Source: Patescibacteria group bacterium (lineage in GTDB: Bacteria; Patescibacteriota; Kazan-3B-28; UBA10110). Taken from it: a DNA stretch of 64,000 nucleotides. A program made the translations under genes and the position numbers. The stretch lies in the NCBI GenBank assembly GCA_043802665.1, contig JAZDKW010000010.1:4024-68023 (forward strand), given 5' to 3'. Positions 5,437 to 54,958 of this stretch are shown in pieces. Position 1 is the first letter of the stretch. Every line of letters begins with the position of its first letter. Under the pieces are notes generated by a model, which saw only the letters and a program-made list of their open reading frames with translations, searched no databases and was not told where the DNA came from.

Positions 5437-5790
5437 TTATTGTATTGGCGCCCGCAATTGTTTGCGGATAGTAGTATAATCCGGAATGGTTTTCGCTACC
5501 AAATTCCAGAATTTCTTTGAATGATTAAACTCCCCCAGGTGACAAAGCTCATGCACAATAATATAGTCCGCCACTTTTGGGGACAACAAAACAATTCTAT
5601 AATTAAAATTGAGGTTGCCCTTTCTTGAACAGCTCCCCCAGCGACATCGTTGATTTCTAATACTGATCCGATTAACCGCAAAATCATAATTTTGATTAAA
5701 ATAATCAATGCGCTCTCGCACCAAAGACCGGGCCAACTCTTTGTTGGCTAAAAACTCCACCCGATTTCGCCGTAATCTGAATCTAAACAT
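5437..5790 (-). CDS. YgjP/DUF45-like (SprT-like) metal-dependent hydrolase, short form.
   Basis: IIVHELCHLGEFNHSKKFW HExxH-type motif characteristic of DUF45. Confidence 0.5.
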   Translation of the reverse strand: MFRFRLRRNRVEFLANKELARSLVRERIDYFNQNYDFAVNRISIRNQRCRWGSCSRKGNLNFNYRIVLLSPKVADYIIVHELCHLGEFNHSKKFWNLVAKTIPDYTTIRKQLRAPIQ

Positions 5791-5803
5791 AGTTTTATTT
5801 TAC

Positions 5804-5872
5804 CCCGTTAGAAGCGATTAGCTATTTATATTAAGCAAGCGGAAATATGAATATTCCCTGCTTCTAACGGGG
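5804..5872. repeat. Inverted repeat ACCCCGTTAGAAGC … GCTTCTAACGGGGT (43-nt spacer) in the 5' leader of the gene at 5437..5790. Copy A of a three-member family.
   Basis: Read directly; related copies at 25727..25828 and 37103..37211. Confidence 0.6.
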
Positions 5873-5884
5873 TAAACTAAGCAA

Positions 5885-5908
5885 AAACCCGCACGGTGCG
5901 GGTTTTAA
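5885..5908. terminator. Bidirectional intrinsic terminator.
   Basis: aaaaaCCCGCACggtGCGGGtttta, a GC stem flanked by A and T runs. Confidence 0.55.
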
Positions 5909-5925: not shown

Positions 5926-6264
5926 TTATAGTTGGTGCAACTTTCTTGGCTGCACCGTGGTATTGGCAGTTATCAAAGCAATAGCCATTGCCAGCATTGC
6001 CTGACGAACTTCGAATTTAAGATCGTCTGGGAATACTTCTTTGGATTCCCAAATTAACTTTGCTACCTCAGGATAGTTTGCTCTGAGGTATCTATTAATT
6101 TCGGTGATCTCGCTGTTTTTCAGTTCCTTGATCAATTCATCGCACGAAGATATTGATATCTTCTTCGGCAAACCACCCTCAAGGACTTTGATTACCGCAT
6201 GAGCTCCAAAGCTCTTTTGTCTTATTGACATACTGAATTCTCCTCCATGAGATATAAGGTGCAA
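5926..6264 (-). CDS. Hypothetical protein.
   Basis: 112-aa ORF followed by the terminator; no recognisable motif. Confidence 0.3.
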   Translation of the reverse strand: MHLISHGGEFSMSIRQKSFGAHAVIKVLEGGLPKKISISSCDELIKELKNSEITEINRYLRANYPEVAKLIWESKEVFPDDLKFEVRQAMLAMAIALITANTTVQPRKLHQL

Positions 6265-10190: not shown

Positions 10191-10225
10191 TTTTTTCATT
10201 CTCTAAAAAAGTTTACGGACAATTT

Positions 10226-10256
10226 CAACGGCTCAACCCGTTGAGCCGTTGAAATC
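10226..10256. repeat. Long palindrome TTCAACGGCTCAAC-cc-GTTGAGCCGTTGAA; family member 1.
   Basis: 11-15-bp arms read directly; a related palindrome is at 37316..37345. Confidence 0.6.
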
Positions 10257-25644: not shown

Positions 25645-25726
25645 GATTACTCCCTTAAGTTTTAAAAAAGTGGGCGCACCCACTTCCAGACTATTTTTAG
25701 TTTAATATAGTTTTCTCGGGGTGTCA

Positions 25727-25828
25727 ACCCCATTAGAAGTAATGCTCCATTTTGCGCTCGATAATCCAAGGGGGGGGTTAAGTTTCTCTAAAAATTCATT
25801 GTCTGGCAAGAGAGAAACTTCTAACGGG
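25727..25828. repeat. Inverted repeat CCCCATTAGAAG … CTTCTAACGGGG (copy B of the CCCGTTAGAAG family), upstream of nusA.
   Basis: Read directly; one mismatch between arms; extended arms TCAACCCC(A/G)TTAGAAGT. Confidence 0.55.
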
Positions 25829-25842
25829 GTCAACCGGATCTC

Positions 25843-36561: not shown

Positions 36562-37101
36562 TCACTTAACTGGCCTGGAAACTAATTGCCAGATTTTTTG
36601 GATAGCAAATTCTTCATTCCCTACTACCAATTTATACAGCACTGGACTAACTACCACCGCGAAAATTACATTTCCGCCCAGGTGCCAAAGGGTAAATGGA
36701 ATTTGGCCGATGAGCGCTTGCATAAATGACATCTTAAAAATTACACTGCTCATAATCGGGCCGGTGATAAAATCGTAAATCAGAGTGGCCACAACAGAAA
36801 ATCCAGCAAAATTCAAAGCACTGGCTGATCGATTCTTAAACCACCAGGCCGCTCCCAACCCCACCAAACCATACATCGCCGCAGTCACCCAAGTCCAAAC
36901 CCCAAACTTAGTCAGCAAATCAAAAATAATGATACTTAAAAATCCGAAAGCAAAACCGCCAAGATAGTTAAACCGTTTGCCGAATGGCATAGTGGTTGCC
37001 ATCACTGGTTCTATATTAGGCACTCTCCATGGGATTAGCCGAATTAGCAAAACCACCGCCAGGCCCAGGATATACTTTATCACAAGATTAACCTTTTTCA
37101 T
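36562..37101 (-). CDS. Polytopic membrane protein, ECF-transporter S-component-like (tentative).
   Basis: 179 aa with five to six TM helices; the assignment rests on architecture only. Confidence 0.35.
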   Translation of the reverse strand: MKKVNLVIKYILGLAVVLLIRLIPWRVPNIEPVMATTMPFGKRFNYLGGFAFGFLSIIIFDLLTKFGVWTWVTAAMYGLVGLGAAWWFKNRSASALNFAGFSVVATLIYDFITGPIMSSVIFKMSFMQALIGQIPFTLWHLGGNVIFAVVVSPVLYKLVVGNEEFAIQKIWQLVSRPVK

Positions 37102-37102
37102 C

Positions 37103-37211
37103 CCGTTAGAGGCAAACTGCCTTAGTTAATAATAAACTTCTGCACATACATTATCTGAGTTGAGAGTTAACCGTTAGTTCACGAAACCTTTTGAGGCCCC
37201 TGCCTCTAACG
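37103..37211. repeat. Inverted repeat ATCCCGTTAGAGGCA … TGCCTCTAACGGGAT (copy C), abutting the start codon of 36562..37101.
   Basis: Read directly. Confidence 0.55.
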
Positions 37212-37315
37212 GGATTCATCTCCACCCCGCCCTTAATAATAGGTAACCGTATAATACCACACTGATAAAATCGGTTAGCAGACTCGAACAGAGACTTTTA
37301 TTATCTTTTTTGAAC

Positions 37316-37345
37316 GGCCCAACGCGTTGGGCCGTTCAAATCAAG
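37316..37345. repeat. Long palindrome TTGAACGGCCCAACG|CGTTGGGCCGTTCAA; family member 2.
   Basis: 15-bp perfect arms. Confidence 0.6.
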
Positions 37346-54824: not shown

Positions 54825-54845
54825 ATATAGAGCCAAGTGCGGTTA

Positions 54846-54938
54846 TGGCGGTGAGGGAGGGATTCGAACCCTCGCGGGGAATTGCTTCCCCCTACCGGTT
54901 TAGCAAACCAGCCCCTTCAGCCTCTTGGGTACCTCACC
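54846..54938 (-). tRNA. tRNA-Ser (anticodon GCT).
   Basis: GGTGAGG-TA-CCC-AAGAGGCTGAA-GGG-G-CTGGT-TTGCTAA-ACCGG-[variable hairpin]-GAGGGTTCGAATCCCTC-CCTCACC-GCCA. Confidence 0.85.
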
Positions 54939-54958
54939 ATCATAACCGCACTTAGTAA

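Follow-up and report, generated by a model that had tools for sequence, protein, structure and literature searches.

What is an inverted repeat that recurs upstream of three minus-strand genes on a single bacterial contig: a shared regulatory site or a small mobile element? The question arises from a 64,000-nt stretch of DNA of a Patescibacteria group bacterium (GenBank assembly GCA_043802665.1, contig JAZDKW010000010.1, positions 4,024 to 68,023 of the forward strand), which we call the window and number from its first letter. A sequence-only reading of this window had pointed to three inverted pairs with unrelated spacers in the 5' leaders of a YgjP-like gene, nusA and a gene for an ECF-like membrane protein, and had proposed a shared cis-regulatory or small mobile element that is not explained by terminators. 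Our analysis identifies all three loci as copies of a mobile DNA element that forms hairpins, is non-autonomous and resembles MITEs (transposable elements of the miniature inverted-repeat type). The best overall explanation, to which we assign a probability of about 0.8, is a MITE-like element that is flanked by a 4-bp target-site duplication, sits at sites where this duplication rebuilds an expression signal and, at start codons, would leave the host gene expressed by translational coupling.

Three inverted pairs in the window

The 11-mer CCCGTTAGARG, with at most one mismatch, has six matches in the window, and these form exactly three inverted pairs (CCCGTTAGARG / CYTCTAACGGG). Shuffled windows contain 1.5 ± 1.2 matches and none of 100 shuffles reached six; the expected number of paired patterns with a gap of 41–101 nt is 0.00. 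A relaxed scan of the 64 kb detected no further or degenerate copy. We set the bounds of the element to take in the terminal Y...R base, which is complementary in all three copies. The perfectly complementary arms are 13–16 nt long; the left arm of locus 2 reads CCCATTAGAAG, which results in a single A.C/G.T mismatch. All three copies fold as long hairpins on either strand (z-scores -3 to -7), and their interiors are unrelated in sequence and length. The distance to the next minus-strand ATG is 12 nt at locus 1 (ATG at 5790), 83 nt at locus 2 (25644) and 0 nt at locus 3 (37101). According to Pfam, the corresponding genes encode a YgjP-like metallopeptidase, NusA and an ECF-S-like membrane protein. 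The three pairs, their unrelated spacers and the gene names of the sequence-only reading are thus borne out.

Evidence for insertion and mobility

We scanned one genome per species, for 185,579 species, with the pattern CGTTAGARG-(41–101 nt)-CYTCTAAYGGG and found at least 120 matching loci. The statistics on the element family are drawn from copies in the loci examined, which cover 8 kb each and about 1 Mb in total. An exact 4-bp direct repeat flanks 74 of the 124 copies, compared to about 6 of 124 when the flanks are re-paired at random. Among the duplications away from gene starts, 29 of 33 have the form TNNA (TAAA 13, TTGA 10, TGAA 4), and TTAA was never seen among 84 duplications.

Further evidence comes from one metagenome-assembled genome (MAG), JAMCZC01, in which three different genes (L092 325, L092 6262 and L114 5990) each have a copy, and the interiors of these copies are closely similar (0.76–0.90 in alignment score per position). 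Their duplications are TGAA, TGAA and TGCG. As the duplications differ beside similar interiors, it is the target, and not the element, that contributes the repeat. This set of copies looks like a recent burst. Each of them also contains a Shine-Dalgarno sequence with ATG and a mini-ORF (open reading frame) that reads MNKIKIINKG(G/E)(Y/F)RQ(T/I)AICF.

For all three loci of the window, empty sites exist in relatives. At locus 3, the filled site on the minus strand is GGGGTGGAG-A-TGAA[TCCCG...CGGGA]TGAA-AAAGG, that is, an insertion of the form A/TGAA/element/TGAA with GGAG before the original ATG. The site is empty in two contigs (L127/L128) whose protein is 91% identical: the empty form is GGAGATGAATAAGG, and these contigs read GGGGTGGAGATGAATAAGG. 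At locus 2, the window reads TTGA[CCCCG...CGGGG]TTGACA, whereas three relatives with 78–83% identical NusA proteins (L121/L122, L123 and L125) have a single GGTTGACA, in the order UPF0102, about 95 nt and nusA. Against proteins of the Kazan group and of Patescibacteria, the identity of the window's NusA does not exceed 85% (83% when the full length is counted). The ECF-like and YgjP-like proteins are 100% identical to NCBI entries from Patescibacteria, and an exact look-up of window proteins gave no record. Locus 1 is empty in L135/L136 and L132, and the proteins of two empty relatives are 75% and 84% identical. It is filled in L134 (80% identical protein) at the same place, in the same orientation and with a homologous interior. 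Locus 1 is evidently an old insertion that is common to the window and one relative. Exact empty-allele junctions of loci 3 and 2 were not found in metagenome contigs.

Taken together, the element has the size, the terminal inverted repeats, the fixed-length duplication, the presence/absence polymorphism and the multiple copies of a MITE, and it contains no transposase gene. Of the two options offered by the sequence-only reading, the mobile element therefore stands, with its target-site duplications, empty sites, dispersed copies and lack of a coding gene, whereas most of the regulatory mechanisms are not supported.

Architecture and hosts of the element family

The element has the termini YCCCGTTAGARG...CYTCTAACGGGR and a length of 65–125 nt, with minimal forms of about 30–40 nt. 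Its arms measure 12–20 bp, and the terminal base pair is complementary in 117 of 124 copies; as the search pattern required intact arms, the arm conservation across genomes is partly due to ascertainment. The only ORFs within elements are mini-ORFs of 4–27 codons. In the common long subtype, the repeat resumes as a second 7-bp helix past a 4-nt bulge (ACCT, TCCT or ATCT) that is present on one side only. Over the 20 pairs of this bulged stem, 97.5% of the cells are paired, and six pairs have changed on both sides. Copy density reaches three in the 64 kb of the window and up to four per 8 kb in other MAGs.

Among the matches listed, about 86 loci belong to Patescibacteria, also known as the candidate phyla radiation (CPR), including Saccharibacteria, Paceibacteria, Nomura-, Kaiser- and Yanofskybacteria and others. 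A further 11 loci are from Planctomycetota, and a few are from Elusimicrobia, Desulfobacterota-type or unclassified MAGs; a few MAG hosts are possibly misassigned by binning. Viral contigs contain only 11 matches. One match in Rossellomorea (L074) lies inside a gene and was discarded as a chance hit.

Two further kinds of copies were observed. A GC-rich short subtype of about 70 nt (L023, L063, L041, L113, L094, L059, L043 and L071) retains a branched interior, in which a 7-bp hairpin is followed by GTCC-loop-GGAC, with changes that compensate each other between genomes and, beside the arm, a T opposite G that stays constant. There are also nested or tandem composites and minimal versions (L037 3724–3814, L045 6014–6090, L112 2935–3080, L138 2497–2585 and L040 at about 6507). 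The minimal versions consist of two arms and a loop of 3–15 nt, with a total of 29–48 nt, and some have their own TNNA duplication. The arms alone may thus be enough for integration.

Insertion sites and the signals that are rebuilt

Copies recur in three contexts: within the start codon, at the -35 box and, with the duplication TAAA, beside -10 boxes. We have shown that copies persist at places where an interrupted signal is rebuilt by the duplication; for half of the copies this signal is the start codon (A/TGNN). At 65 of 129 copies, the next ORF of at least 80 amino acids begins exactly with the last base of the element. Among 79 start-site cases, 51 have a perfect 4-bp repeat together with a start codon (48 ATG, 3 GTG) at the matching upstream place.

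The terminal base pair differs between the contexts. T...A copies are found 69 times at ORF starts and 11 times elsewhere, whereas C...G copies are found 13 times at starts and 42 times elsewhere. The element ends in A or G, and at start codons this terminal base, together with the duplicated TG, recreates ATG or GTG directly after the hairpin. All 13 G-ending copies at start sites are followed by GTG, and five of them retain an ATG upstream. From the ATG upstream and the GTG downstream of G-ending copies, it follows that the element itself contributes the first base of the working start codon. In about 19 of 54 targeted genes, the original ATG is preceded by a -10 box at leaderless distance.

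In the -35 context, an insertion of the form G/TTGA/element/TTGA/CA keeps an intact TTGACA. Locus 2 is of this kind, and the nusA -35 hexamer is invariant in all relatives compared. As the promoter-like site is located downstream of copy 2 and its -35 box is invariant, copy 2 is not in the nusA leader. Locus 1 resembles the TAAA context. Its copy lies between the region of the upstream terminator and -35 box and the -10-like box of the YgjP-like gene, and the sequence GGGG/TAAAAT/AAAACT/ATG has a leaderless-type geometry. The same TAAAAT, 6 nt and ATG are present in the empty relatives L135/L136, where the order is terminator, TTTTTGCTTG, 18 nt, TAAAAT, 6 nt and ATG. The placement in 5' leaders that had been proposed from the sequence therefore holds for locus 3 and fails for locus 2, upstream of the nusA promoter, and for locus 1, upstream of the -10-like TAAAAT. 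The coordinates are given in Table 1.

Table 1. Coordinates of the three element copies and associated features in the window
Feature	Position	Strand	Length	Remarks
Element copy 1, C...G type	5803..5872		70 nt	CCCCGTTAGAAGC...GCTTCTAACGGGG
-10-like hexamer TAAAAT	5797..5802	-		Directly abuts the element; followed by 6 nt (AAAACT) and ATG at 5790
Intrinsic terminator of the upstream gene (5926-6264)	5884..5906	-		Separate from the element; kept in L134 and L135
Element copy 2, C...G type	25728..25829		102 nt	In the -35 box of the nusA promoter, 13 nt past the UPF0102 stop codon
Target-site duplication at locus 2, copy 1	25724..25727			TCAA on +, TTGA on -; with 25722-25723 gives the intact -35 TTGACA
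Target-site duplication at locus 2, copy 2	25830..25833			TCAA on +, TTGA on -
nusA promoter-like site	25699..25727	-		TTGACA (at 25727), 17 nt, TAAACT (ends 25699); 10/12 matches; downstream of the element
Element copy 3, T...A type	37101..37214	-	114 nt	Inside the start codon of the ECF-S-like gene; last base A (37101) is the A of the functional ATG
Target-site duplication at locus 3, downstream copy TGAA	37097..37100	-		Provides TG for the rebuilt start codon as well as the start of codon 2
Target-site duplication at locus 3, upstream copy TGAA	37215..37218	-		With A at 37219 forms the original start codon, original GGGGTGGAG still before it
uORF1	37151..37219	-		From the original ATG into the element; MNPVRGRGLKRFRELTVNSQLR*
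mini-ORF2	37106..37147	-		MCRSLLLTKAVCL*; starts 3 nt past the uORF1 stop, ends at the right-arm TAA, 4 nt before the host ATG 37101

Some other features of the loci and the window were observed alongside. The YgjP-like protein (5437–5790, minus strand) has 117 amino acids and covers positions 109–205 of the 207 positions of the Pfam domain, that is, its C-terminal half. This length is kept in ten relatives; it is thus a genuine short form and not a truncation by the element. The nusA leader contains a terminator-like hairpin, GAAGTGGGTGCGCCCACTTTTTTAAAA, at 25660–25689 on the minus strand, between the nusA promoter and the Shine-Dalgarno sequence. This hairpin is nearly invariant in four relatives whose surrounding leader has diverged, and it could be an attenuator, perhaps involved in NusA autoregulation. 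Between a tRNA-Ala gene and copy 3, there is a perfect 32-bp palindrome, TTTGAACGGCCCAACG/CGTTGGGCCGTTCAAA, at 37309–37340, which lacks a loop and has a U-run on neither strand; a comparable perfect palindrome (16+16), with CAACGG, is found at 10222–10255. Lastly, a 22-nt inverted repeat (91% complementary; 54835–54856 and 54932–54953) encloses tRNA-Ser(GCT) at 54846–54938 and reaches about 11–15 nt past the tRNA on each side. It may be a processing stem of the precursor.

Polarity of the element and expression of the host gene

The long subtype is oriented relative to the gene. Of 45 long copies at ORF starts, 42 have the asymmetric right end, with the YCTRY bulge, towards the gene and three have it away from the gene. 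Promoter-like scores and TATAAT counts are the same on the sense and antisense strands, and we thus reject an outward promoter inside the element. Shine-Dalgarno-like words and ATG do differ between the strands: the sense:antisense counts in the interiors are 19:2 for GGAG, 28:3 for GGGA, 6:0 for GGAGG and 100:61 for ATG.

The right arm supplies a TAA 4 nt before the rebuilt start codon (CTTC TAA CGGG ATG). An ORF of at least five codons that begins with ATG and ends at this TAA was found in 36 of 63 long copies on the sense strand compared to 9 of 63 on the antisense strand (Fisher p = 8e-7). When the interiors were dinucleotide-shuffled, 10.2 ± 2.8 such mini-ORFs were found, with a maximum of 17 in 300 shuffles. 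Sorted by frame, with the frame of the TAA first, ATG codons number 53/24/23 on the sense strand and 19/27/19 on the antisense strand; the TAA frame has the fewest stop codons. Peptide conservation is limited to the residues that the terminal repeat encodes (...TCF, ...ICF, ...SYF).

As the insertion always follows A/TGNN, the original start codon also opens an upstream ORF (uORF), which reads M-x-P-V-R into the element. Allowing re-initiation at the nearest start codon around each stop, we found a chain of ORFs from the original ATG to the host ATG in 19 of 51 copies, compared to about 9 when the interior was flipped or shuffled. Locus 3 is an example of such a chain, from the original ATG via uORF1 and mini-ORF2 to the host ATG.

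From these patterns we infer that, at start-codon copies, translational coupling would keep the host gene expressed. Ribosomes would start at the retained original start codon or at the mini-ORF of the element, translate through the hairpin and thereby open it, stop at the right-arm UAA (CUUC-UAA-CGGG-AUG) and re-initiate 4 nt downstream at the rebuilt start. The need for coupling would explain both the tolerated insertions and the fixed orientation of the long subtype.

Expression could also be restored without coupling. Cleavage of the RNase III type at the foot of the hairpin would yield a leaderless mRNA with the rebuilt AUG at its new 5' end; alternatively, the initiator tRNA could take off and land between the duplicated AUGNN, as in bypass. 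The foot of the hairpin does coincide with the A or G of the new start codon, and the targeted genes with a leaderless-type -10 box would suit such an mRNA. The duplication also leaves matched AUGNN on both sides, as in known bypass elements, which include T4 gene 60 and the mitochondrial byp elements. However, neither route accounts for the 42:3 orientation or for a frame-specific mini-ORF that ends at the arm UAA, and we consider both unlikely.

A bolder proposal, to which we give slightly less than even odds, is that the T...A subtype is specialised for start sites. It would enter one base into the start codon, donate the A and hand ribosomes on through its oriented mini-ORF. Moved by a transposase, it could have spread in the reduced genomes of Patescibacteria either as a selfish element with built-in coupling or as a portable 5' cassette that was co-opted by the host.

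Weighing the evidence and the alternatives

Several observations weigh against a MITE-like element with coupling at start codons. About 25% of the copies lack a duplication, and so does locus 1, where copy 1 is flanked by TTTA and TAAA. The interiors are mostly unrelated even within one genome, which is unusual for a MITE burst and implies that the arms are maintained by selection or appear so by ascertainment. The enrichment at start codons could in part reflect that ATGAAA is a very common TNNA site at coding edges. Copies 1 and 3 of the window are in the minority orientation, with the canonical right end of copy 1 (CCTGC before the arm) on the plus strand, antisense to the YgjP-like gene. 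Furthermore, 27 of the 63 long copies have no ATG mini-ORF, and the proposed coupling draws on statistics. As for an autonomous copy, no pair with the same termini encloses a transposase in the approximately 1 Mb of loci. A tblastn search of the loci with a sequence of ISEcp1 (IS1380 family) found no match within this DNA.

Arm pairs at long range were considered as candidate autonomous copies; all of them turned out to be combinations of separate small elements or a chance match in a gene. The terminal inverted repeats and the duplication, and only these, point to a DDE cut-and-paste transposase as the putative mobiliser.

In addition to cleavage and bypass, a second alternative is a structured cis-regulatory RNA, in which a long-range stem in the mRNA leader masks the start region and a shared trans-acting factor or RNase binds the conserved arms. 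In its favour, every copy folds into a stable hairpin, the 3' arm of start-codon copies ends on the A of the ATG, the extended stem stays paired through double changes and the interior is biased towards the sense strand. At locus 3, where the 3' arm ends on the A of the ATG, it is physically plausible that the stem sequesters the start codon. However, empty sites and duplications mark insertions and not conserved leaders, the downstream genes are unrelated, and the likely transcripts of the named genes do not include loci 1 and 2. When the stems are oriented by the downstream gene, they contain 49 G:U pairs and 53 A:C mismatches; this gives no hint that a sense-strand RNA helix is under selection, and the arms behave as terminal inverted repeats. 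Double changes do not discriminate, as they are expected both of a folded strand and of two ends bound by the same protein. At the gathering threshold, Rfam gave no match for the window copies or for about 25 copies in 18 other loci, with only tRNAs and noise detected, and a permissive search (E <= 10) around locus 3 gave no relevant match. A conserved sense-strand stem in the mRNA is thus not indicated, and we regard a regulatory RNA, as the sequence-only reading had envisaged, as rather improbable.

A third alternative is an element of the REP (repetitive extragenic palindrome) or REPIN (REP doublet) type that is moved on single-stranded hairpins by a RAYT-type (REP-associated tyrosine transposase) Y1 (HUH) transposase. 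Two conserved inverted arms, a variable spacer, long-lived and diverse copies and conserved bulges would fit. When we clustered the 541 ORFs of at least 200 amino acids in the loci, mostly housekeeping and pilus genes and one Y1_Tnp family recurred. A RAYT-like Y1_Tnp ORF (PF01797) is present in 5–6 of the 120 8-kb loci examined, where about one would be expected for a single-copy gene, assuming a genome of about 1 Mb. The ORFs in question are L008 4170–4985, L006 7211–7934, L047 3585–4248, L017 277–904, L119 3765–4388 and L065 5606–5833. These genes are, however, 0.2–1.9 kb away from elements and not flanked by them, and the window contains none. The arms also lack the GTAG motif of enterobacterial REPs, and 60% of the copies have a duplication, which is not the same in closely similar copies. 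Target duplications are not known to arise from Y1/HUH transposition, and for this reason we rate the lead low: a link of the Y1_Tnp ORF to the mobilising enzyme is possible and unproven, and a REPIN-like origin is very unlikely.

Least probable is an inverton, in which the inverted repeats would be recombinase sites around a short invertible segment with a promoter or translation signal. Short conserved inverted repeats around a variable interior directly upstream of genes, and, as for global invertases, repeats that recur at many loci within a single genome, do recall such a system. Yet invertons do not show presence/absence polymorphism or 4-bp direct repeats at their flanks, and interiors of 40–100 nt are short for recombinase synapsis. 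Moreover, the interior is oriented 42:3 in the assemblies, the orthologous copies of the window and L134 have the same orientation, promoter-like sites do not differ between the strands, and no recombinase gene recurs beside elements in the loci.

The remaining candidates are dismissed briefly: a dimer-of-dimers operator, as had been suggested from the sequence, does not explain the variable spacing of 43–100 nt, the duplications or the empty sites; a terminator is rejected, as had also been anticipated, because the elements have no U-run and the true terminator next to copy 1 is separate; and an integron attC site is rejected because the box order is reversed relative to the loop and copies are scattered at gene 5' ends.

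Implications for Patescibacteria

The genomes of Patescibacteria are tiny and densely packed with genes, and nearly all knowledge of the group comes from metagenomes. The element precedes a sizeable share of genes, and its start-codon duplication and hairpins of 70–120 nt will affect gene calling as well as promoter and leader prediction and intergenic alignments. If the proposed coupling is true, a mobile element can occupy the start codon, which is among the least tolerant positions of a gene, without silencing it. The presence or absence of copies provides ready strain markers in CPR populations. In addition, the conserved 12-nt ends are a handle for finding the mobilising enzyme, and JAMCZC01 would be the best genome in which to seek the transposase.

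Comparison with known systems

In the literature searched on the motif, on MITEs of the CPR and on leaderless genes of Saccharibacteria, we found no description of the element, and the phrase 'start codon' is absent from a 2024 review of prokaryotic MITEs. The element is apparently undescribed and common in Patescibacteria.

Integron attC sites likewise form an imperfect hairpin in which the conserved basal stem contains GTTAGA/TCTAAC, one strand has a bulge and the tip varies in length. Their stem is mirrored, however, with 5'-RYYYAAC...GTTRRRY-3' in attC and 5'-GTTAGAAG...CTTCTAAC-3' here. Furthermore, the copies here do not form arrays behind cassettes, they have a target duplication, and an intI gene was not noticed. 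The REPIN-RAYT system has in common with the element the conserved inverted arms, the variable spacer, the long hairpins and copies that are long-lived and diverse and do not form bursts. It differs by the target duplication found here and by the lack, in the loci, of a RAYT gene flanked by elements.

The terminal repeats of piggyBac begin with the 5' motifs CCCTC, CCCTT or CCCAT, and its duplication is TTAA or, rarely, TAAA, TCAA or TATG; IS1380 has been used as the prokaryotic outgroup of piggyBac (PMC10813416). The element shares with these transposons a 4-bp duplication with T...A as outer bases and termini that begin with CCC; the duplications of IS1380 measure 4–5 bp. In contrast, TTAA is missing among the duplications here, and the ISEcp1 probe revealed no such transposase near copies. 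The CCCGTTAGAAG of the element resembles the piggyBac end, CCCTAGAAAG, which may be chance. The piggyBac/IS1380 group is thus a possible source of the mobilising enzyme, as a lead only.

Rickettsia palindromic elements are likewise palindromic mobile elements that are tolerated within the boundaries of essential genes in reduced genomes owing to an interaction with translation (PMC10969869). Their insertion is in frame and makes them a translated part of the host protein, whereas the element described here lies between the duplicated start codon and the ORF, contains stop codons and remains outside the protein.

Among known systems, the element appears to work most like the Correia repeat-enclosed elements (CREE) of Neisseria, which can generate promoters at their ends and bind IHF and RNase III (PMC2649163). 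Both are non-coding, about 100 nt long and dispersed beside genes, and both have terminal inverted repeats and duplicate a short target; CREE are co-transcribed as hairpins, as the element would be, and in both the ends and the duplicated target recreate expression signals. The termini are unrelated, and the duplication is a 4-bp TNNA here and TA in CREE. Correia elements occur in Neisseria, whereas the present element occurs in Patescibacteria and Planctomycetota and most often rebuilds the start codon. In addition, one subtype here has a mini-ORF that is positioned for coupling, and the interiors are far more diverse. Its termini, duplication, hosts, start-codon rebuilding and oriented mini-ORF set the element apart from the Correia and Rickettsia elements.

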